DNA of 64,000 nucleotides, from NCBI GenBank assembly GCA_002436025.1, contig DIXM01000002.1, positions 245,659 to 309,658 on the forward strand, in the 5' to 3' direction. Positions 2,832-33,125 of the stretch are shown here, one piece after another. A program made the position numbers and the translations under genes. Every line of letters begins with the position of its first letter. Within the stretch, counting starts at the first letter, position 1. The notes under the pieces are model-generated. The model worked only from the letters and a program-made list of their open reading frames with translations, was not told the DNA's origin and ran no database searches. The stretch is from a candidate division Hyd24-12 bacterium UBA6080. GTDB taxonomy: Bacteria; Fermentibacterota; Fermentibacteria; Fermentibacterales; JCC-6.

Positions 2832-3528
2832 TGTCAGCAGAAGGTTCGCCAAGGCCCGGGAGACGGTCGATCGCGAGAGGATCTACTCCCTCGACGAGAC
2901 GATCGCCCTGGTGAAGGGCGCCGCCACAGCAAAGTTCGACGAGACCGTTGAAGTTGCGGTGAACCTGGGCGTGAATCCGAAGCATTCGGATCAGGTCGTC
3001 CGTGGAACCTGCATTCTTCCCTTCGGCACCGGAAGAACGGTCCGTGTACTGGTATTCGCCAGGGGCGAGAAGGCCGAAGAGGCCCGGGAAGCCGGCGCGG
3101 ACAGCATAGGCGATGAGGAAACCGTAGAGAAGATCAAGGGCGGCTGGATGGATTTCGATGTGGTCATCGCCACGCCCGACATGATGAAGGTCCTGGGCGC
3201 GGTGGCCAGAATCCTCGGTCCCCGGGGTCTCATGCCCAACCCGAAAACCGGCACCGTGACAATGGATGTGTCACAGGCGGTCAGGGAGGCGAAAGCCGGC
3301 AAGATCAACTTCAGGGTTGACAAGACCGGTGTGCTTCATGTTCCTGTGGGCAAGGCCAGCTTCGATGAGCCGGCCCTCAGGGAGAACATTGTGGCCTTCA
3401 TGGAGAAGGTGATGCAACTCAAACCCGCCACCGCCAAGGGCAAGTACATCATCAGCATGTCGGTCTCATCCACCATGGGTCCCGGAGTTCGGGTTGATAC
3501 CGCCGATCTCCGGCTGGTTCTCAAGTGA
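2824..3528 (+). CDS. rplA: 50S ribosomal protein L1
   Basis: 234 aa L1-like translation. 8-nt overlap with the end of rplK. Confidence 0.9.
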
Positions 3529-13241: not shown

Positions 13242-13613
13242 TTGCCCACGATCAACCAACTGGTGCGGTCAGGGAGAAGCAAGCAGAAGGCCAACACAAA
13301 GGCTCCCGCGCTTACCTCCTGCCCTCAGAAAAAGGGCATCTGCACCCGTGTGTATACATCAACGCCCAAAAAGCCCAACTCCGCCCTCAGAAAAGTGGCC
13401 AGGGTCAGGCTTCGCAACGGTTATGAAGTAACAGCCTACATTCCCGGCGAGGGGCACAACCTCAACGAGCACTCCGTGGTTCTCGTCCGCGGGGGCAGGG
13501 TCAAGGACCTTCCCGGCGTGCGCTATCACATCATCCGCGGTGTTGAAGACGCCAGCGGCGTGAGCGGTCGCAAGCAGAGCAGGTCCAAGTACGGGACGAA
13601 GAAGGAAGCGTAG
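13242..13613 (+). CDS. rpsL: 30S ribosomal protein S12
   Basis: TTG start after [14 protein letters not shown]...[11 protein letters not shown] is the S12 signature. Confidence 0.92.
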
Positions 13614-21094: not shown

Positions 21095-21692
21095 GAGCAC
21101 GACCGACACTCTTCGGATACTCGCCTTTGCGGGCAGCACCAGAGAGGGATCTTTCAATCGCGCACTGATGGAACAGGCTGCCGGGTTCGCACGCGAGGCC
21201 GGCGCTGCTGTCACCCTGGTCGATCTCGACGACTTCCCCATGCCGATAGTGAACCAGGACCTTGAAACCGCGCACGGCATCCCTGCGACCGCCCTGGCCT
21301 TCAAACGGCTTCTTTCAGAGAACGACGGCTTTCTCATCGCGTCGCCTGAATACAACGGCTTCGTTACACCGCTGCTCAAGAACTGCCTGGATTGGGCTTC
21401 CCGTTCGGAAACGCCCGACGAGAAGCCCCTCTCGGCGTTCAGGGGGAAGACGGCGGCCATCCTGTCGGCATCACCCGGAGGCCTTGGGGGGCTCCGCAGC
21501 CTGTCCGTCCTCAGAACGCTTCTGACGAACCTCGGTGTGATCGTGCTTCCGGGGCAGCATGCGGTCTCCGGGGCGGACGGGGCGTTCGATGATGAAGGAA
21601 AACTGAAGGATTCCGGGAACGTCGCATCGGTGAAAAGGGTCGTCCGGGAACTTGTCAGGGTCACTTCCGCTCTGAGAGCAACGGTCCACTGA
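21087..21692 (+). CDS. NAD(P)H-dependent FMN reductase family protein
   Basis: TTG start overlapping the DOMON stop. LRILAFAGSTREGSFNRAL...LIASPEYNGFVTPLLKNCLDW is typical of the SsuE/ArsH-like FMN reductase family. Confidence 0.75.
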   Translation: MTESTTDTLRILAFAGSTREGSFNRALMEQAAGFAREAGAAVTLVDLDDFPMPIVNQDLETAHGIPATALAFKRLLSENDGFLIASPEYNGFVTPLLKNCLDWASRSETPDEKPLSAFRGKTAAILSASPGGLGGLRSLSVLRTLLTNLGVIVLPGQHAVSGADGAFDDEGKLKDSGNVASVKRVVRELVRVTSALRATVH

Positions 21693-22387
21693 TGCTGCTT
21701 CAGGCGCTTCCGCCGGCGCTCCCGCCCGGGAGTTCAGAATCATCCGACGCACTCCAGGCCATCGCCCTGCGAGCCGTGCTCCGATCCCCGGAGTGGGGGC
21801 AGGTCAAAGAGTACTGGAACCTTCTGAACCGCGTAACAGGGAAAGGTGGCCAGTTCCAGCCCGCCGGTGACCTGGACATGGCAAAGGCCGACAGCATCAT
21901 AGCCGATGTTCGCAGGTGCATGGCCGGGCTCAACCCCGACGGCGGTACGGGGGGCATGTGGAGCGCCCTTGAGATGACGGGTCTTCTCGTTGAGACCCGG
22001 GCACTGAGGCTCAGCCGCATCAACCCCGCTTTCATGACAAGGATGATGCCCTCATGGTCGACCACCTTCGGTGAAGACCTGCTCTACAGCTTCGACTCAA
22101 GGCTCAGGGAGCTCGAGAGGCTCAGGAGCGGGGGTGAACTCACCGAAGAGGTCTTCCTGTCTGCGTCGGATACGCTTGGCAGACAGTTCGAAACGTGGGC
22201 GCTTCTGCAGTTGGCCGATGACCGGTACGGCTTCGGGCCCCCCGGTATTCAGGAAAGGCTTCTGGAGGTCGAACTCCTCTACGAAACCGTTGCGGAGGAA
22301 TTCGGCGAGGAGAGGGTTCTGGCCTTCAGGGAGATGCGCCCATACCTCGAGCCCCTTCTCGAAAGTCTTCTTGAGGAGTTTTACTGA
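21692..22387 (+). CDS. Hypothetical protein (231 aa, no recognisable domain)
   Basis: TGATG coupled to the FMN reductase gene. Ends in a CTGA junction with the radical SAM gene. Confidence 0.5.
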   Translation: MLLQALPPALPPGSSESSDALQAIALRAVLRSPEWGQVKEYWNLLNRVTGKGGQFQPAGDLDMAKADSIIADVRRCMAGLNPDGGTGGMWSALEMTGLLVETRALRLSRINPAFMTRMMPSWSTTFGEDLLYSFDSRLRELERLRSGGELTEEVFLSASDTLGRQFETWALLQLADDRYGFGPPGIQERLLEVELLYETVAEEFGEERVLAFREMRPYLEPLLESLLEEFY

Positions 22388-23298
22388 ACGTCTTCTGGTT
22401 CGCGTTCGAGGTCACTCCCGTCTGCAACCTTTCCTGCGGCTACTGTTACAACTTCTGGCGCGACCCCGGGCAGCAGGTTCCACGGGAGCTTGAGATTACA
22501 GAGATCCGGGGGATTCTGCACAGCCTTCGGACCGATGCCCCGGGATCAGGCGTGACCCTTACGGGAGGCGAACCCCTGCTCAGACCCGATCTTCCCGGGA
22601 TCGCAGCTGCAGCAGCGGAACAGGGCTTCACAGTGGCCGTCGCCACCAACGGGACACTTCTGACATCATCCATTGCCCGCGAACTGCGGGATTCGGGAGT
22701 AAGGCACTTCGACATCGGCATCGAAACCAGAGTCGCGGACGTTTCAGAAGGGATAGCAGGTGCCTGTGCGACCGGGGCCAGCGTCACCCTTTCACTTTGC
22801 CTCACCTCGAAAAACTCCGGTTCGGCACCGGAAGTGGTGAGGTTTGCGGCGGCTCTGGGGGCCGATGCCGTGTGTCTGAACAGGTTCGTTCCAACGGGCA
22901 GGCCGACCGATGCCGACCACCTGCCCTCGTCAACCGGGATCATTGATGCCCTGCGGGATGCCGGAAGGGTGGGCGCGGAGCTCTCCCTGCCTGTCTACGC
23001 GGGCATCCCGCTGGAGCCCTGTGTGTTCCCCAATGTCAATGAATTTGGTATAATCAACACCGCATGTCACTGTGGAGAGGGAAAGTGGGCCATAGGGCCC
23101 GATGGCTGGCTGAGAACCTGTGAGCAGAGCCCTGTTCTTCTCGGAAGCCTGCTTACAGAAAGGTTTTCTGCACTGAGGGAGTTGACCGTCGTGAAAGGGT
23201 TCCGTGAAGCCACACCTTTCCGTAAATGCCATGGTTGTGCCGATCTTCCACGTTGCGGCGGAGGGTGCAGGTTTCTTGACGGATCGGAGTGCAGTTGA
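22384..23298 (+). CDS. Radical SAM / SPASM-domain protein (no canonical start codon before the Cys motif)
   Basis: Frame open from 22375. It encodes LNVFWFAFEVTPVCNLSCGYCYNFW (CxxxCxxC), then GGEPLL, then C-terminal CHCGEGKW...CHGCADLPRCGGGCR (SPASM/twitch-like). The first canonical start (GTG 22552) lies after the cluster motif. A CTG at 22384 overlaps the upstream TGA. Confidence 0.6.
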   Translation: MNVFWFAFEVTPVCNLSCGYCYNFWRDPGQQVPRELEITEIRGILHSLRTDAPGSGVTLTGGEPLLRPDLPGIAAAAAEQGFTVAVATNGTLLTSSIARELRDSGVRHFDIGIETRVADVSEGIAGACATGASVTLSLCLTSKNSGSAPEVVRFAAALGADAVCLNRFVPTGRPTDADHLPSSTGIIDALRDAGRVGAELSLPVYAGIPLEPCVFPNVNEFGIINTACHCGEGKWAIGPDGWLRTCEQSPVLLGSLLTERFSALRELTVVKGFREATPFRKCHGCADLPRCGGGCRFLDGSECS

Positions 23299-26311: not shown

Positions 26312-29227
26312 ATGTCGTATCTTCCTCCCAGATTTGGTGTATTCACTCTTAGCGTTCTAATCCTGCTCACTCAGTCCCTCATCGCAGCGGAACCCGGGGA
26401 GAACACAATTCCCATCATAGGCATGCGGGCTTCCAACAACGCAGACTTTTCAGGGATAGGCATTCGTCTTCTCTGCGAGCTGTCTTGGAAGTGTTTCGAC
26501 GGAGTGGAGGTGGAGGGACTTGTGGTGGATGGTTCCGCGGGAAACCCGGATTGGCAAGACAATCGTGATTTCATAGAACTCTGCGGTGATGCGGGCATGC
26601 TTCTGGTCCTTGCTCCCTGGGAGATAAGCCAGTTCCATAACTTCTGGAACGTAAACACCGCGTACTGGTTCCGCTGGGAGGACTATTCACTCAATTCCGG
26701 GAAGTGTTTCGGGCAGCTTTCCGAAACCCTTGGAGCACCGATTGACTCCATGACGGCTGCGCAGATGGCAGATACCACTGAAATCAGATCAGTTGCATAC
26801 GCGAACAACCAATTGGCAATCACCTTGAACCCTGCGACTTATCCCGCCCTTTGGTTCTACAACGTATATGACGAGGCGCCTGCGCGTCAGCGTGCCAGAA
26901 TGATAGAAGGTTCCACGACATGGGACGATTGGATCCCCAACCTCTACACCCAGGACACACTGAGCAATGGTGAACCAACCCTGACGGAGATAGAACCCGC
27001 GGGCATCTACTCCTGGCAGAAGTGGTTTGCGGAAAACCACGTGACAACTCCCATCCCCCTTACCATCAACTTCTCCCTGCTGCATACCATTCAAGCCAAT
27101 GAGTACACCGGGATAACCTGGGATCTCAACTACGGCACCATGCACCAGCAGGCCAATTCTGTCAGAGCGTTGTGCGAAGCCCTGTACCAGGGGCCTCCCG
27201 GGACGGGAACGCCCGTTGACCCGGTGAGCAACTCCCCTGAGTTCATCTGTTTCGACTACTACCCGTTTCGGTATGTTCACATTGATTCCCTGGGAGCAAC
27301 CCTCTGCGACGACGACTGGCTCTTCCTTGTTGACCATTGCGAACAGGGGATGGACTCGACGGTGTTCGCGGCAAGGGAGAGCGATGTCCCGGTGTTCTTC
27401 TACCCTCAGGCCTTCGGGGTCTCCGGAGGTCCGCTGCTGCGTGATTCCGCAGGAGATCTTGAGTACCTTTCCTACACGTACCGCACTCCTGCTCCTCAGG
27501 AGTTCCGCATGCTCTGCAATCTGGCCCTGCTGCACCAGGCAAAGGGGCTTTTTCCCTACTCCCTGGCCGGCTACATCTCTGACCCCAATGCCCCTGAAGA
27601 TCAGAACAACTTTATATGCAACTCGCTTCTCGACCTTCACGGCATACCGTTCGATGCTCCGTACGAAGACTGGGTGTACACCGGAAGGTGGCCGGATACT
27701 GGTGACTGGGAAGGCGGGTACGAGTACGCCGACCCCGGGGAACTTCCCCCCTTCAGCGCGGGCTTCGACCCTCTCTACGAGGTGTCGGCAGCACCGGTTC
27801 CAGTGCAGGATGACCCGAAGAACACCGAGAGGTTTCTGACATGGCTCTTCGAGCCCTACTCGAGGCTTTACGACAGCGTTCAGGTTCCCCTGGCCGAGGC
27901 TGCAGTGATTGCACCCGAGATGTCGGATCTCTGGTGGTGGGAGGGTTCGTGGGACGCTGCAAGTATCTCTGTGGACGACCCTGAGATCTACGACCACTAC
28001 GTTCCACCTGTGATAAAGGTGTTCCAGGGGCCGGACAGCAGCCACGTGTATCTTTACTACGTGAACCGCTACCTGAGGAACGAAGAGACGGATTACACCG
28101 TCAGGCTCACTGTCTCTCAGAGCCCCGGGTACGTATCCTTAACTGTACTTGACCACAGCAGGCGCTTTTTGATACCGGCTCCTTCAGGGGGCGGGGGCAA
28201 CGATGTTTACGTCGCCTTCGACGACACGCTGGAAGCGGGTGAGGGCAGGCTCGTTGAGTTCGTGGACACAAATGCTCTTCCCGCGGACATCAGGGTGACG
28301 TCACCCGACGTTTATGTGTACAGGCAGGGCGCCGTGAACAGAAGCGACCGGTTGTGCTGCACCGCCGGTGAAACCATCACCTTCGGAGCCGTGTACTACA
28401 ACATGGGGACTGCGGCAACCGGAGATATCAGCGTGGTCTTCGAAAAGGTTGGTACACCGTACATACTGGGCACCGACACGATACGTTTCGGGGGGCTTTC
28501 AGGGTACTACAACCCCGACAGCGCCTCCGCGAGCATTCAGTGGGAGACCGATGTGAACGACATTGGTGTTCACAGGATCGGGATAAGCGCGGGAGCCGTT
28601 TCCGGCGAGAACACATCCGACAACAGTGTTACGGTCACGGTTCTTGTTGAGCCTTTGGACTACGCCACCGAAGTTCCGGGGAACGCGTGGGACATGACCG
28701 AGGCTGTGAGCAATCCGCCGGACTGGTTCACCAATGACATTGTCTCGATTGCGGCCGGCTGGATTGATTCATGCTGGACCGATTCCGTCAGCGGAATGTT
28801 CGAGGGCGCAATTGAGTCCCGCACTTACGGTGCCTGGACAGGGTTCAAGGGGGATATCAGCCTTAACACCGGCGGTGGATCAATCAACGCAGACCGGTAC
28901 ACATTGCTGAGCCTTGCCGGTGTCTCCCTGAACCCCAATGTATCTACAACGGAGTATGGCTGCGGCATGTTCCTGTTATGGAAGGATTCAACGGAGACCG
29001 AGCGTCAGTTGGAGCTTCACGGGAGCAACGGCTTTGATCGGTGGCTTGGGAACGGCAGGGAGATGTGGCGCGAGTTCGGACCTCTTGACCTCTCCGATGT
29101 TCCTTGGTGGGGCGGCGAGATAAGCGATCTGAGGATAAGGTTCCAGATGGATCCGCCCGGAAGTCTCCCGGGTAGCTCCCTTGGCATCAGGATCGGCTGG
29201 GTCAGGCTGGAAGAAGGTGCTTTGTGA
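26312..29227 (+). CDS. Large secreted hypothetical protein (971 aa) with CARDB-like Ig-fold segment
   Basis: N-terminal signal peptide. No catalytic motif recognised. A segment around residues 640-760 resembles CARDB/Ig-like repeats. Confidence 0.65.
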   Translation: MSYLPPRFGVFTLSVLILLTQSLIAAEPGENTIPIIGMRASNNADFSGIGIRLLCELSWKCFDGVEVEGLVVDGSAGNPDWQDNRDFIELCGDAGMLLVLAPWEISQFHNFWNVNTAYWFRWEDYSLNSGKCFGQLSETLGAPIDSMTAAQMADTTEIRSVAYANNQLAITLNPATYPALWFYNVYDEAPARQRARMIEGSTTWDDWIPNLYTQDTLSNGEPTLTEIEPAGIYSWQKWFAENHVTTPIPLTINFSLLHTIQANEYTGITWDLNYGTMHQQANSVRALCEALYQGPPGTGTPVDPVSNSPEFICFDYYPFRYVHIDSLGATLCDDDWLFLVDHCEQGMDSTVFAARESDVPVFFYPQAFGVSGGPLLRDSAGDLEYLSYTYRTPAPQEFRMLCNLALLHQAKGLFPYSLAGYISDPNAPEDQNNFICNSLLDLHGIPFDAPYEDWVYTGRWPDTGDWEGGYEYADPGELPPFSAGFDPLYEVSAAPVPVQDDPKNTERFLTWLFEPYSRLYDSVQVPLAEAAVIAPEMSDLWWWEGSWDAASISVDDPEIYDHYVPPVIKVFQGPDSSHVYLYYVNRYLRNEETDYTVRLTVSQSPGYVSLTVLDHSRRFLIPAPSGGGGNDVYVAFDDTLEAGEGRLVEFVDTNALPADIRVTSPDVYVYRQGAVNRSDRLCCTAGETITFGAVYYNMGTAATGDISVVFEKVGTPYILGTDTIRFGGLSGYYNPDSASASIQWETDVNDIGVHRIGISAGAVSGENTSDNSVTVTVLVEPLDYATEVPGNAWDMTEAVSNPPDWFTNDIVSIAAGWIDSCWTDSVSGMFEGAIESRTYGAWTGFKGDISLNTGGGSINADRYTLLSLAGVSLNPNVSTTEYGCGMFLLWKDSTETERQLELHGSNGFDRWLGNGREMWREFGPLDLSDVPWWGGEISDLRIRFQMDPPGSLPGSSLGIRIGWVRLEEGAL

Positions 29228-31062
29228 AAGCTCTGATTCTGCTGCCCGTTGTCTTGACAACCTCTTTGGCGGGCTTAAGCGGGCAGGACGACTGGTCCGA
29301 CGGGCCTGGAGTTCCCGGGCCGGTGAACTTCTTCTTTCAATCCTTCGACAGCCACCAGAACATGGGATACGAGGACACGCCGGGGGAGTTGTTCCTTCAT
29401 CTTCGGGGCGAGAAGCATCAGGTCACGAACTACCTTGAGTACTCGGTTCCCGGGATGGTGGCAGACATGAACGGCGACGGTCACCTTGACGTGGTGTGCG
29501 GGTCCAACGGATACAGCAAGAGGAAGGTTTACTGGTTCGAGAACGACGGTTCAGGGGGTGGCTGGGAGCGCCACGATGTGAGTGGAACTGGCGAAGTGAC
29601 CTATCCATGGTCCGTTTGCGCCGCGGATGTCGACGGAGATGGCGATATGGACGTTATCTGCGGGGATAACGACAACAAGATTTTGCTCTGGATCAACACT
29701 GACGGATCGGGGCTGACCTGGGAAACCATCATTCTTGTTGACAACCTTTTCTATAGCCCAACGTTTGTCACGAATTCCGACATTGATGGCGACAGTTATC
29801 CTGATGTTGTTACACTAACAGGTGGTGGTTCCAACGAGTTGATCCTATGGTTTGAAAACCCCATACCCGATCGGCCCACAATCGATGGATGGACACAACA
29901 TCTGGTAGGACCGAAAGCAAACTGCAATCAGGTCTTTCCAGCCGACATCAACGGCGATGGTCGGATGGACGTGGTCAGCGCTGCTGGAAGTTCCAACAAG
30001 CAGGTGTCGTGGTGGGAGAACGAGAACGGTACGGGCGACAACTGGACTGAGCGCACCATTGTCAACAACATCAATCACGCAAAGACTGTCCATGCTTCAG
30101 ACATGGACGGTGACGGCGACATGGATGTGATTGCTGCAGGGTCTTATGACTTGTACTGGTTTGAGAACGACGACGGACTGGGAACTTCTTGGACAGAGCA
30201 TCAACTTCCTGATCCTTTTGTTCTGTGCAAGGCCGCTGCAGGAGTTGACATTTTTGGAAACGGCAGTCCAGTGATTCTCTCTGCTCATGGTTCCAGTGGC
30301 ACGCCTATTCGCTTCGTCCTCTGGGAGCGGATGGACGAGGGGGGTCTGACCTGGAGAAGGCACATACTGGAGAAGAGTTACCTGTACCATGGTCTCTCCG
30401 TTGGGGATATCGATGGGGACGGTACACTTGATGTGGTTGCCTTCGAGGATGGCAGCCGGGTTTTCTGGTTCAGCAAGTTTGGCTACCCATCCGAAGGAAC
30501 ACTCACCTCATCCATTCTGGACGTGAACAACTATCCCCACTGGGATGAGATACAGTGGCAGGACAGCGTTCCTGCGGGTTCTTCCGTACGGTTTCGTGTG
30601 CGTAGTTCCAACGATCCCGGGGACATGGGTGAGTGGTCTGGCTACATTGAGGAGTCCGGGAGCCTTGAGGGCTTTGCGGACAGCACCCACCGTTATTTCC
30701 AGTACCGTGTTCACATGGAGCCATCGGGCCATCTGGTGACACCCACGCTCTATCAGGTGCTGATCTACTGGCAGTGGCTTGGGGTGGAGGGGGCTGAAGA
30801 AGAAACATGCCTTCACCCGGTGACCCCCAACCCATGTACAGGCCCTGTGGAGATACGGTTCAGTCTTGCGGAGCCGGGTCCCATTGCGCTTCAGGTGTTC
30901 GACCTGTACGGCCGTTTGGTCGCCTTGCCGGTGGACGGCGAGGTGTCGGGCGGTGAACACTCGGTCCAGCTTGCTTCCCTGCATCCGGGAGCCTACTTCG
31001 TCAGGATGACCACGGGAGAAGAAGTGCTGCGGGAGCGCTTTGTTCTGGTGGGTGATCAGTAA
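29224..31062 (+). CDS. FG-GAP/VCBS-repeat beta-propeller protein with T9SS-type C-terminal sorting domain
   Basis: GTGA overlap with the upstream gene. Signal peptide. Repeated DxDGDGxxDV calcium-binding FG-GAP motifs (DMNGDGHLDV, DVDGDGDMDV, DINGDGRMDV, DMDGDGDMDV, DIDGDGTLDV). The C-terminal ~80 aa (NPCTGPVEIRFSLAEPGPIALQVFDLYGRLV...GAYFVRM) resembles the Por/T9SS CTD. Confidence 0.8.
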   Translation: MKALILLPVVLTTSLAGLSGQDDWSDGPGVPGPVNFFFQSFDSHQNMGYEDTPGELFLHLRGEKHQVTNYLEYSVPGMVADMNGDGHLDVVCGSNGYSKRKVYWFENDGSGGGWERHDVSGTGEVTYPWSVCAADVDGDGDMDVICGDNDNKILLWINTDGSGLTWETIILVDNLFYSPTFVTNSDIDGDSYPDVVTLTGGGSNELILWFENPIPDRPTIDGWTQHLVGPKANCNQVFPADINGDGRMDVVSAAGSSNKQVSWWENENGTGDNWTERTIVNNINHAKTVHASDMDGDGDMDVIAAGSYDLYWFENDDGLGTSWTEHQLPDPFVLCKAAAGVDIFGNGSPVILSAHGSSGTPIRFVLWERMDEGGLTWRRHILEKSYLYHGLSVGDIDGDGTLDVVAFEDGSRVFWFSKFGYPSEGTLTSSILDVNNYPHWDEIQWQDSVPAGSSVRFRVRSSNDPGDMGEWSGYIEESGSLEGFADSTHRYFQYRVHMEPSGHLVTPTLYQVLIYWQWLGVEGAEEETCLHPVTPNPCTGPVEIRFSLAEPGPIALQVFDLYGRLVALPVDGEVSGGEHSVQLASLHPGAYFVRMTTGEEVLRERFVLVGDQ

Positions 31063-31089
31063 ACACGTTGCAGGAGAGACCGTTTCCCG

Positions 31090-32253
31090 TCAGTTGCACA
31101 GGCCCCTCACGATAACAGCTCGTACCGTTTCCAGAAGCAGTTTCGAGCCCAAAGACAGAAGCCCGTCGGGGAACTCGTAATCGGGGTGGTGGAGAGAAGG
31201 GGTTTCCTCACCGGCCCCAAGGCCGAGAAGGACCCCCGGGATGGCGCCTGTGAAGTGGCCGAAGTCCTCCGACCATGGGAAGGGCTCTTCCCTGAAGGAG
31301 ACGTTCATGCCAAGCCCCCTGGCTGTCTCTGCGACCAGGTCAACCAGACTGCTGTCGTTCTGCACGGGTGGGAACTCTTCGCTTCCTTCCACCGAAACCC
31401 CCAGCCCGTAAGCCCCCGCGATCCCCTCGGCGAGCCAGGTGCACTCTCTGAACAGGTCTTCGAGAACCCCCTTTTCTGCGGCCCTGAGGGTTGCCATTAA
31501 AACCGCCTCGCCCGGGGAAGTCCCGAACGTTTCAGCACCCAGCGCCGCATGGACGACAGTGACCATCGCAGGTTGATAAAGACCGGTCCGGTTCTGTGGA
31601 ACGGCGTTAAGGGCCTGGATAAGCTGGGCGACCGCCATTGCAGGGCTTCTGCCCTTGTGGGGTTCCCCCGCGTGGGAACGTTCACCGGTGATATTGACGG
31701 TTATCCCCACTGATGCGGAGGCGAAGACACCATGCCTGAGGATGACCTCGCCCGACTTGAACCCGGGAAGGTTGTGAAGCGCCACTGCGAAGTCGGGCAT
31801 TACGGACTTGAAACCTTCGTCCTTCAGTGCCGCGGAGGCTCCTGCGCCGGTCTCTTCCGCGGGCTGGAAAAGCAGGAGGACCGAGCCCCTTTCAAGCGGG
31901 GCTTCCGAAAGTTCTGCCGCCACGCCGGCAAGCATCGCCATATGACCATCGTGCCCGCACCCGTGATACGCTCCGGAACCATCCGGCATGGGAAGGCCGT
32001 CGAGCTCGCACCTAACCATTACCCGGGGTCCGGGAAGAGCCCCCTTGAATAGAGCGGCCACGCCGTGCCCGGCGATCCCCCTCAGAAGCCTGGTTGGGCA
32101 TGTGGCGGCAAGAAAGTCTGCCACGATCACTGCCGTTGCGGCCTCCCTGCCGGAAACCTCGGCCCTTGCGTGAAGGGCCCTTCGGAGATCGAGCGGGTTC
32201 AGACCTTCCCCTTTCCAACGAGTTTGGCGAAGTGTTCGAAGGAGCGGTCCCAC
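31090..32253 (-). CDS. M20D-family amidohydrolase (peptidase M20)
   Basis: LRRALHARAEVSGRE...GIAGHGVAALFKGALPGPRVMVRCELDGLP...QPAEE is typical of M20D. Start shown as GTG 32253, which overlaps the upstream small ORF by 55 nt. The alternative CTG 32202 overlaps that ORF's TGA and gives MNPLDLRRALHA, a very typical family N-terminus. Confidence 0.75.
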   Translation of the reverse strand: MGPLLRTLRQTRWKGEGLNPLDLRRALHARAEVSGREAATAVIVADFLAATCPTRLLRGIAGHGVAALFKGALPGPRVMVRCELDGLPMPDGSGAYHGCGHDGHMAMLAGVAAELSEAPLERGSVLLLFQPAEETGAGASAALKDEGFKSVMPDFAVALHNLPGFKSGEVILRHGVFASASVGITVNITGERSHAGEPHKGRSPAMAVAQLIQALNAVPQNRTGLYQPAMVTVVHAALGAETFGTSPGEAVLMATLRAAEKGVLEDLFRECTWLAEGIAGAYGLGVSVEGSEEFPPVQNDSSLVDLVAETARGLGMNVSFREEPFPWSEDFGHFTGAIPGVLLGLGAGEETPSLHHPDYEFPDGLLSLGSKLLLETVRAVIVRGLCN

Positions 32254-32402
32254 GTTTTCTCTTCTTCTTTTGGGAAAAAGCAGCCCGGAATCTCCCTGTT
32301 CTTCAGGTGGCTTGCCACACATTCGCAGCAAACACCCTTTCGGGAGCACGGTTCGTAGCTGCAGTTGCACCGCTTGAGATTTTCAGGCTTTCTGCACTCC
32401 AT
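32199..32402 (-). CDS. Small cysteine-rich protein (67 aa, 7 Cys; CxCx5Cx5CCxC...C)
   Basis: Strong SD: GGAAGGAGTG, 5 nt before the ATG. MECRKPENLKRCNCSYEPCSRKGVCCECVASHLKNREIPGCFF. Divergent from the S10 operon. Confidence 0.6.
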   Translation of the reverse strand: MECRKPENLKRCNCSYEPCSRKGVCCECVASHLKNREIPGCFFPKEEEKTWDRSFEHFAKLVGKGKV

Positions 32403-32465
32403 GATTCACTCCTTCCGTCCGGTTTGCATAAGGGCCGGGCGCCCCCGGTGTCAATGCCCCACGGC

Positions 32466-32494
32466 TTGACAGACCGGGTTTTCTGTGGTAGGCT
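32466..32494 (+). promoter_or_regulatory. Candidate S10-operon promoter
   Basis: TTGACA - 17 nt - TAGGCT, about 175 nt upstream of rpsJ. Confidence 0.25.
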
Positions 32495-32667
32495 TGCACT
32501 TCCCCGAAAGGCCAGGGGTGGTTGCGGTTCCTTTGGAATTCAACCATATTTGGCGCCCCGGAGGCTCCGATGAGCCAATGGGTGAAAATGAAATTGGCAG
32601 CGCGGGATTCTCCCGAATGGGTGTATTGCGCGTTTATTTCTGGTTTGTAAAGAACCGAGGAGATGGG

Positions 32668-32973
32668 TTGAACGAAATACGGCTCAGAATCAGGCTTCGG
32701 GCCTATGACCACCGGCTTCTGGACAAGTCAGCCGCTTCCATCGTGCGCGGCGTGCTGAATACCGGAGCCAAGGTTGCGGGTCCGATCCCACTGCCCACGA
32801 GGCGCACGATGTTGACGGTTCTCCGAAGCCCCCATGTTGACAAGAAATCACGGGAGCAGTTCGAGTTGAGGGTTCACTCCAGGCTCATTGAGATTCGCGA
32901 TCCCAACGAGCAGACCACCGAAGCCCTGCGTCAGCTCGATGTTCCCGCCGGTGTGGATGTTGAGATAAAGTAA
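32668..32973 (+). CDS. rpsJ: 30S ribosomal protein S10
   Basis: TTG start after [26 protein letters not shown]...GPIPLPTR is the S10 signature. The ORF-track start at 32485 is too early. Confidence 0.9.
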
Positions 32974-33125
32974 CCTGCATTCCTCCTGACTGATCCGGCG
33001 GGGCCGGATTAAGAGGAAATGTCGCACTGCGGAGCCTGGGCGGATGCTCCGGCGGGCGACGGAAGAAAGAACAGAAACGCTCGTCCCCCCGCCAATAAGG
33101 GGACTTCAGCGACGGGAAGTGGTAT

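Follow-up and report, generated by a model that had tools for sequence, protein, structure and literature searches.

Where does translation of the M20D amidohydrolase gene begin in the candidate division Hyd24-12 bacterium UBA6080? The gene lies within a 64,000-nucleotide stretch of the genome (GCA_002436025.1, contig DIXM01000002.1, positions 245,659 to 309,658; this whole stretch is called the window), directly behind a small Cys-rich gene whose stop codon is overlapped by a CTG. An earlier reading of the letters (the original prediction) had placed the conserved N terminus of the enzyme at this CTG, at position 32202, and not at the canonical GTG at 32253. Comparison with relatives, the closest of which are annotated as Candidatus Fermentibacteraceae, leads to the same placement, since the state of the homologous codon in related lineages, the absence of the GTG from many of them, and the point at which coding selection changes frame all agree. 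CTG 32202 is thus probably a functional start of the amidohydrolase. The Cys-rich gene, a member of the DUF6485 family, and the M20D gene quite likely form a two-gene unit with an NTGA overlap and a weak CUG start, which would be used, probably, by termination-reinitiation.

The DUF6485/M20D junction

The junction comprises the following features.
32199 to 32402, minus strand: DUF6485 gene, 67 amino acids, Cys rich, the upstream cistron; ATG at 32402, stop TGA at 32201-32199.
32200 to 32202, minus strand: CTG, proposed M20D initiation codon, sharing TG with the DUF6485 stop (CTGA, -4 overlap).
31090 to 32202, minus strand: M20D amidohydrolase counted from the CTG, 370 amino acids, matching Pfam Peptidase_M20, M20_dimer, and TIGR01891.
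32203 to 32216, minus strand: purine-rich Shine-Dalgarno (SD)-like tract GGAAAGGGGAAGGT, inside the 3' end of DUF6485 and directly upstream of the CTG.
32251 to 32253, minus strand: GTG, the nearest upstream canonical in-frame start, giving a 17-residue extension and a 55-nucleotide overlap with DUF6485.
32128 to 32130, minus strand: GTG of the public gene model (346 amino acids, MIVADF...), the first canonical codon downstream of the CTG.

The sequence was re-read, and the coordinates, the GTC TGA end of DUF6485 on the minus strand, and the downstream frame were all found to be correct as originally described. In the M20D frame the bases read GGT CTG AAC CCG CTC GAT CTC CGA AGG GCC CTT CAC, that is, LNPLDLRRALH after GGT. 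The enzyme matches PF01546 Peptidase_M20 (E=4.4e-26, 92.5 bits, cutoff 24.6), PF07687 M20_dimer (23.7 bits, cutoff 21), and NCBIfam TIGR01891 (182.6 bits, cutoff 153.75), the last with residues 5 to 346 on model positions 3 to 360. Its translation contains the metal-site motifs HGCGHDGH, QPAEE, and HNLPG, and it aligns to the structures 1ysj (YxeP), 4ewt (SAPEP), and 1xmb, with 1ysj and 4ewt aligning from the RR.LH helix onwards. An equivalog-level family match for the amidohydrolase was not found.

The 67-residue open reading frame (ORF) matches Pfam DUF6485 (PF20095) with E=5.5e-15 and 56.1 bits (cutoff 24), residues 8 to 65 falling on model positions 3 to 68 of 70. The sequence GGAAGGAG lies 7 nucleotides before its ATG, with an SD duplex energy of -8.9 kcal/mol; all such energies were computed against the canonical anti-SD, which is assumed, as the window has no 16S rRNA. 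The family match, together with the clear selection described below, indicates that this ORF is a real gene and not an untranslated artifact. The GTG at 32253 is in frame and overlaps DUF6485 by 55 nucleotides, as had been stated; it is the nearest upstream canonical start and not the only one, others lying 120, 129, and 168 nucleotides upstream of the CTG (GTG 32370 among them) with larger overlaps. The database protein that is 100% identical to the amidohydrolase of the window, P0001, begins further downstream, at GTG 32130, and the same gene call is found in the related locus L178.

Conservation of the junction among relatives

The sample of relatives consists of 19 distinct sequences that carry DUF6485 and M20D, and whose M20D proteins are as little as 55% identical to that of the window. 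These were obtained from three genome loci, from exact-protein look-ups, and from a look-up with the ribosomal S10 protein that gave ten 20-kb syntenic loci; the S10 protein (101 amino acids) is 100% identical across the related loci checked, save one. WIN denotes the window's own sequence, L-numbers denote related loci, and P-numbers denote database proteins. A metagenome scan for close relatives of the amidohydrolase yielded distant homologues alone, with identity of 52% or less.

The 4-nucleotide NTGA overlap, which in the window is GTC TGA/CTG at 32203-32199, is present in all 19 sequences, and no insertion or deletion separates the Cys motif of DUF6485 from the M20D motif. The junction is CTGA in 16 of the sequences, GTGA in two (the L164 and L180 groups, MTITELRR...), and TTGA in one (L167, MTPRELRR...). 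This indicates that the codon homologous to the CTG of the window is a canonical start in related lineages. The TTG lineage is basal on a rough neighbor-joining tree. The CTG clade, whose members share as little as ~63% M20D identity with the window, includes the GTG lineage as a nested branch. The stop of DUF6485 is TGA in all 19 sequences, whereas only 26 of the 63 stops in the window are TGA. Stop-codon turnover in the neighboring ribosomal-protein genes was considered as a control, and 17 of 21 stops there are conserved, too many for the comparison to be useful. Any synonymous change of the junction Val codon GTC would create an ATG, GTG, or TTG start, and Val codon use is not dominated by GTC (GTC 73, GTG 63, GTT 49, and GTA 10).

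In L164 to L166, L180, and L182 DUF6485 ends with Leu (CTG TGA) and not with Val (GTC TGA), so that the junction is GTGA. The canonical M20D start of the L164 lineage thus follows from an amino acid change in the upstream protein.

Several relatives offer no canonical alternative close to the CTG. L161/L181 have no canonical M20D start nearby, and in L188 an in-frame stop lies 12 codons upstream of the CTG, AAGGAGG lies 6 nucleotides before it, and the first canonical M20D start is 45 codons downstream. In these M20D genes, as in the radical SAM gene described below, every canonical start that could be used lies downstream of some conserved coding sequence. In the window's own M20D gene, which has a GTG 17 codons upstream, the CTG is identified by homology and not by exclusion.

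That GTG would be the true start in an alternative explanation, in which the amidohydrolase begins at 32253 inside DUF6485 with a 17-residue extension and the CTGA is an evolutionary leftover. The codon is canonical and in frame, it is kept in 8/8 members of the window's subclade, and gene callers used it in three relatives (the 387-residue models P0003 to P0005). Its retention in the subclade, however, is the neutral expectation, as 52 of 161 four-fold sites (~32%) are invariant there, and 11 of the 19 sequences, among them every deep branch and the GTG and TTG lineages, do not have it. In L188 the in-frame stop separates the position of this codon from the M20D gene. The GTG arises from the third-position G of a DUF6485 Thr codon (ACG TGG), which elsewhere is ACC or AGC and gives CTG in the M20D frame. 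The SD match before it is weak, with a duplex energy of -3.2 kcal/mol compared with -8.1 kcal/mol before the CTG, and the extension carries radical changes (R/C and W/G) with no drop in the wobble variation of DUF6485. A start at GTG 32253 would also leave the radical SAM gene unexplained, and we regard it as unlikely.

A DUF6485 motif beside M20D homologues was sought by regular expression in 157 loci of other phyla, and none was found; the pairing looks specific to the group of Fermentibacteraceae relatives. The M20D ORF of L003 is open for 894 nucleotides only, and the corresponding protein P0018 has 290 residues and a divergent tail. This truncated copy may represent an assembly frameshift or a decaying copy.

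Onset of coding selection and the family N terminus

Variable sites were counted per codon position in the 16 sequences of the CTG clade. Codons 2 to 24 after the CTG have variable sites at 11, 9, and 22 of 23 first, second, and third positions, and the next 100 codons have 44, 38, and 94 of 100. In the 17 codons before the CTG, numbered in the M20D frame, the corresponding counts are 15, 6, and 4 of 17, and in the rest of DUF6485 they are 41, 23, and 19 of 49, where M20D positions 1, 2, and 3 are DUF6485 codon positions 3, 1, and 2. Both upstream regions thus show the wobble pattern of DUF6485, while the variation after the CTG is concentrated at third positions, as it is in the gene body. 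Since the pattern switches frame at the junction, coding selection in the M20D frame begins there, and the 17-codon extension from GTG 32253 shows no sign of constraint as a piece of the enzyme.

The His of the LH..PE motif is most often residue 12 among ~100 database homologues (26 of them), and in most it lies between residues 10 and 17. It is residue 11 when counted from the CTG and residue 28 when counted from GTG 32253. With the TIGR01891 match beginning at residue 5, the description of this sequence as a textbook M20D N terminus is borne out. The alignment of homologue N termini that had been proposed as a check points the same way, as the homologues do not start near the position of GTG 32253 and the extension is not conserved.

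The same comparison bears on the public gene model, according to which the enzyme of 346 residues starts at GTG 32130 after GGGAGG. Besides the database entry P0001 and the gene call in L178, this start has a favorable SD duplex (-10.9 kcal/mol, 11-nucleotide spacer). However, it would remove 24 conserved residues including the LRRALH.RAEVSG helix, which aligns to solved M20D structures and is under coding selection. Seven of the 19 sequences have Val at this codon, the others having Glu, Asp, Leu, or Thr, and M20D homologues of other phyla all begin upstream of the LRRALH motif. Because of the lost helix and the coding selection in the 23 codons upstream, GTG 32130 was rejected as the start, which we consider very improbable.

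A second CTGA junction at a radical SAM gene

The original prediction had also mentioned a second enzyme gene in the window with a CTG over an upstream TGA. This gene was located, and its case is stronger than that of the M20D gene. Its features are as follows.
22384 to 23298, plus strand: radical SAM gene from CTG 22384-22386, 304 amino acids; Pfam Radical_SAM, E=2.2e-20, residues 9 to 115.
21692 to 22387, plus strand: upstream cistron, 231 amino acids, no family match; ends TAC TGA, with TGA at 22385-22387.
22372 to 22378, plus strand: in-frame TGA (22372-22374) and GAGGAG SD (22373-22378), overlapping each other, 4 codons and 5 nucleotides, respectively, before the CTG.

The frame opened by CTG 22384 reads LNVFWFAFEVTPVCNLSCGYC. 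The iron-sulfur motif CNLSCGYC (CxxxCxxC) occupies residues 14 to 21, and the first canonical start, GTG 22552, lies after it, which leaves CTG 22384 as the sole NTG codon that keeps the motif. The N-terminal segments upstream of GTG 22552 include (M)NVFWFAFEVTPVCNLSCGYCYNFWR and DPGQQVPR. The SD duplex has an energy of -8.1 kcal/mol. CTGA is kept in six lineages (WIN, L179, L181, L184, L187, and L188), where the last codon of the gene for the 231-residue protein is TAC, CAC, or CGC; the amino acid varies (Y, H, or R) and the C at the third position is kept. In WIN, L179, L181, and L184 an in-frame stop lies 4 to 8 codons upstream, and there is no canonical start that keeps the iron-sulfur motif. 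In L183 the sequence is TAG TTG TTG AAA, with a TTG at the codon homologous to the radical SAM CTG. In most of these lineages a C-to-T change at the junction would give a canonical start.

The variable sites change phase here as well, with 5, 6, and 16 of 23 at codon positions 1, 2, and 3 after the CTG, compared with 15, 6, and 8 of 20 before it. Database models are truncated to 244 to 273 residues in 9 of the 12 closest clusters, without CxxxCxxC, and two entries, P0121 (an NCBI model of 304 residues, MNGFWF...) and P0130, begin with M exactly at the radical SAM CTG codon. On these comparisons, the start at CTG 22384 can be proposed with greater confidence than the one at CTG 32202.

At this junction a local 8-bp hairpin can be drawn (22355-22378, plus strand), in which the SD (UUGAGGAG) pairs with CUUCUCGA inside the upstream gene. 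Relatives retain part of the hairpin, in which a G-U pair has in one instance become G-C, and both of its arms encode Leu/Glu repeats. The region folds no better than shuffled sequences (z = -1.22), and the hairpin is inseparable from coincidence within the coding sequence.

With two junctions in hand, two explanations that dispense with a CUG start can be weighed on both. In the first, a programmed -1 frameshift fuses DUF6485 to the amidohydrolase and the 231-residue protein to the radical SAM enzyme, so that no start codon is needed. In both pairs the second gene is read in the -1 frame of the first, and a report from Mycobacterium tuberculosis describes fusion products formed at an AUGA overlap (PMC11260477). 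However, neither junction has a slippery heptamer (X XXY YYZ), re-pairing in the -1 frame is impossible for the last codons (GTC; TAC, CAC, and CGC), and the flanking bases are not the same from lineage to lineage. Furthermore, in L183 the upstream gene ends with TAG and the radical SAM start, a TTG two codons beyond it, shares its frame, and no DUF6485 motif was found beside the M20D homologues in the 157 loci of other phyla. The lack of a slippery site and the variable last codons led to rejection of this explanation, which is barely credible.

In the second explanation the starts have decayed, the genes being expressed poorly or not at all as incipient pseudogenes, or nearby canonical codons specific to each lineage serve as starts without any use of CUG. 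The appearance of new canonical codons close to the junction (ATG at +7 in L003/L169 and TTG at +5 in L002/L177), the L003 copy truncated at 894 nucleotides, and the inconsistent public gene models all fit such turnover. It is countered by purifying selection along the whole length of both genes, the codons immediately after the CTG included, and by the persistence of the CTG state throughout the clade described above. The M20D genes of L161/L181 and L188 have no nearby canonical start to turn to, and neither do the radical SAM genes of WIN, L179, L181, and L184 if the iron-sulfur motif is to be kept. Decay or turnover is therefore an improbable account of both junctions.

Extent of putative CTG starts in the window and in other lineages

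All NTGA sites that bridge two long ORFs in the window were scanned, and apparent CTG starts were found in two cases among ~63 genes; the window also holds ordinary ATGA, GTGA, and TTGA junctions. Ten ORFs with long pre-start stretches were checked, and no further non-canonical start was found among them: the Pfam domain begins after the canonical start or there is no Pfam match. L10, S12, and rpoC have normal starts (ATG or TTG). The idea of a systematic loss of canonical starts is not sustained by two cases among ~63 genes, and the search for further CTGA junctions before conserved N termini gave none within the window beyond these two. Two CTG starts per ~63 genes exceed the expectation from annotated bacterial genomes, where starts are 81.8% ATG, 13.8% GTG, and 4.35% TTG and CTG is rare (10.1101/063800). 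The hexamer CTGAAC occurs 74 times in the window, compared with ~37 expected from shuffles; it was rejected as a signal, since the excess reflects codon usage and consists of in-frame Leu-Asn pairs (23) and antisense occurrences (35) and not of start sites. The only tRNA gene in the window is that of tRNA-Trp, and a search of the literature found no paper on start codons in Fermentibacteria.

As an outside control, 144 M20D loci of other lineages were examined for a canonical start 5 to 35 codons upstream of the motif His, and one of the 144 lacked it. Given this frequency and the retention of the overlap in 19 distinct sequences, the CTGA geometry goes beyond chance.

The exception in the control is L040, an M20D paralogue of Candidatus Sabulitectum sp. 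(JAIOSV010000122.1, ~2960-3021), which also belongs to the Fermentibacteria. The stretch from an in-frame TAA to its LRNSLH motif contains no ATG, GTG, or TTG, and an ATT (or ATC) 6 nucleotides after AAAGGGG would give the usual N terminus (MKELIQLRNSLH). The start region follows an AT-rich, promoter-like stretch and is not a coupled junction. The start of L040 is likely to be this ATT or ATC, which possibly hints at a wider tolerance of start codons in the phylum.

The ribosomal genes for S10 (32671-32976, plus strand) and S12 (13243-13613, plus strand) have TTG starts after a strong GAGGAG or AAGGAG. In the ribosomal operons of L178 to L187 the starts chosen by gene callers differ (L16, 121 to 140 residues; S17, 77 or 87; L29, 64 or 72; L3, 201 to 253; S8, 129 or 131; L6, 159 or 181). 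This disagreement seems to be caller noise, and the cases looked at in the window have ordinary canonical starts.

Proposed initiation at the overlap

We propose that the amidohydrolase begins at CTG 32202, which would be read as Met by the initiator tRNA to give MNPLDLRRALH... A ribosome that finishes DUF6485 at the TGA would already sit on the CTG, and the SD-like purine tract just behind would permit reinitiation there despite the weak codon. According to this mechanism, CUG would be read by fMet-tRNA chiefly when a ribosome has only just stopped at the overlapping UGA, the output of amidohydrolase would be low, and the radical SAM gene at 22384 would work by the same route. From the geometry of the junction, termination-reinitiation is on balance the favored route. 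Among coupled gene pairs of prokaryotes, NTGA is the most frequent spacing (PMC12548453). In Escherichia coli reporters CUG initiates at ~1 to 2% of AUG (10.1101/063800), and a change in the anticodon stem of the initiator tRNA relaxes discrimination against CUG in vitro (PMC11497404). The SD duplex before the M20D CTG reaches -10.0 to -12.8 kcal/mol in L002, L003, L177, and L188, where GGAGG lies 6 to 7 nucleotides before the CTG.

Several observations weigh against this proposal. The entire case rests on comparative sequence, and the window itself has the canonical in-frame GTG 32253, where a start, alone or additionally, is possible. CUG is a very weak initiator in E. coli, where it has been measured (10.1101/063800). 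The SD-like tract has an unexceptional score, as the 5th percentile of the purine-rich background inside the gene is -10.3 kcal/mol, again with the anti-SD assumed. Conserved RNA structure was sought at both junctions and was no better than in shuffles (z = 0.17 and -1.22). The invariance of the junction C is only modestly unusual, since 9 of 105 conserved four-fold columns, the junction GTC included, are invariant among 15 CTG-clade sequences, and the evidence that this C is selected is accordingly weak. Canonical codons have also arisen repeatedly near the CTG, namely an ATG at +7 codons in L003/L169, a TTG at +5 codons in the L002 group and L177, and a GTG at the junction in L164. This suggests that the CTG is a poor start that some lineages may have dropped.

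The ATG at +7, found in L003 and in L169 to L172 (window 32181-32179), changes the second Arg of RR.LH to Met in two lineages that stand apart on the rough neighbor-joining tree. Met at this position occurs in none of ~100 other homologues checked, and a canonical start close to the weak CTG seems to have been gained more than once.

A candidate promoter of the DUF6485-M20D pair was read from the sequence as follows.
32425 to 32454, minus strand: TTGACA, 18 nucleotides, TATGCA.

The arrangement TTGACA..TTATGCAAA precedes DUF6485 in L001 as well, and TTATGCAAA does so in L003. It is a possible promoter of the pair, proposed with low confidence; a promoter and terminator scan of 30900-32750 gave nothing informative and did not flag it.

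Comparison with known systems

The junctions resemble the NTGA coupled pairs (E. coli trpE-trpD; the survey of Huber et al. 2019, PMC6728339; reviewed in PMC12548453) in that the genes are co-oriented, the TGA shares two bases with the NTG, an SD-like tract lies inside the upstream gene, and the geometry is conserved across relatives. They differ in that the start is CTG and not ATG, GTG, or TTG, and the coupling is proposed here from the geometry.

CTG starts themselves have been described. According to the excerpts of Baudet et al. (PMC2830850) used here, N-terminal proteomics identified a conserved CTG start of rpsL (and of Deide_03051) in Deinococcus-Thermus, and the plasmid protein RepA in E. 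coli is cited there as having a CTG start. As with rpsL in those excerpts, the CTG stands at the initiator position of homologues and is conserved in a clade, and the automatic gene models are heterogeneous or truncated. In contrast, rpsL has peptide evidence in that source, while the cases described here are known from sequence. The excerpts do not mention a stop/start overlap for the Deinococcus-Thermus cases, whereas here two accessory enzyme genes of an uncultured family both have CTGA.

As summarized in the same source, the AUU/AUA start codons of infC (IF3) and pcnB are weak starts kept for regulation. The likeness is that a weak near-cognate start has long been kept although one base change would make it canonical, and this long retention suggests low or regulated output. 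The codon class differs (AUU/AUA compared with CUG), and infC has, according to that summary, an autoregulatory logic through IF3 for which no counterpart is known here. In the reporters of Hecht et al., which covered all 64 codons in E. coli, CUG initiates with Met, at the ~1 to 2% of AUG given above and at 0.02 to 3% in other constructs (10.1101/063800). Those were artificial reporters with an independent ribosome-binding site and not reinitiation at an overlap; they were also measured in another organism, in which the initiator tRNA and IF3 may not be alike.

Neighboring genes

Between the gene for EF-G and the amidohydrolase (26312-31062, plus strand) the window holds two large genes with a mutual GTGA overlap. 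One encodes a protein of 971 residues, with no family on record for the identical L178 gene, and the other a 612-residue FG-GAP protein with a Por secretion tail. In most relatives alanine racemase lies directly downstream of the amidohydrolase in their place, and the gene pair looks like a lineage-specific replacement.

Implications for Fermentibacteria

CUG starts and NTGA coupling are each already known; the interest here is in two independent, clade-conserved examples of apparent CUG starts in the same overlap geometry. For annotation, this would mean that the public models of both enzymes are wrong in most relatives; those of the amidohydrolase range from 334 to 426 residues and use at least seven different starts across lineages. 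Metabolism inferred from these metagenome-assembled genomes would score the radical SAM enzyme as broken. Lying a single base from a canonical start, the junctions are suited to asking whether reinitiating ribosomes accept CUG better than ribosomes that initiate de novo, a question that bears on the open issue of 30S versus 70S scanning in translational coupling. The repeated appearance of nearby canonical codons shows how lineages compensate for a weak start.

More tentatively, Fermentibacteria may have a relaxed selection of start codons, although this is doubtful at present. CUG, and perhaps AUU or AUC, would then be a regular fourth class of starts in a few percent of genes, especially for reinitiation at NTGA overlaps. 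A change in the anticodon stem of the initiator tRNA or in IF3 could be the cause, and selection would retain the weak codon so as to set the downstream enzyme at a low level compared with the product of the gene before it. If this is true, many gene models in the phylum would be truncated.

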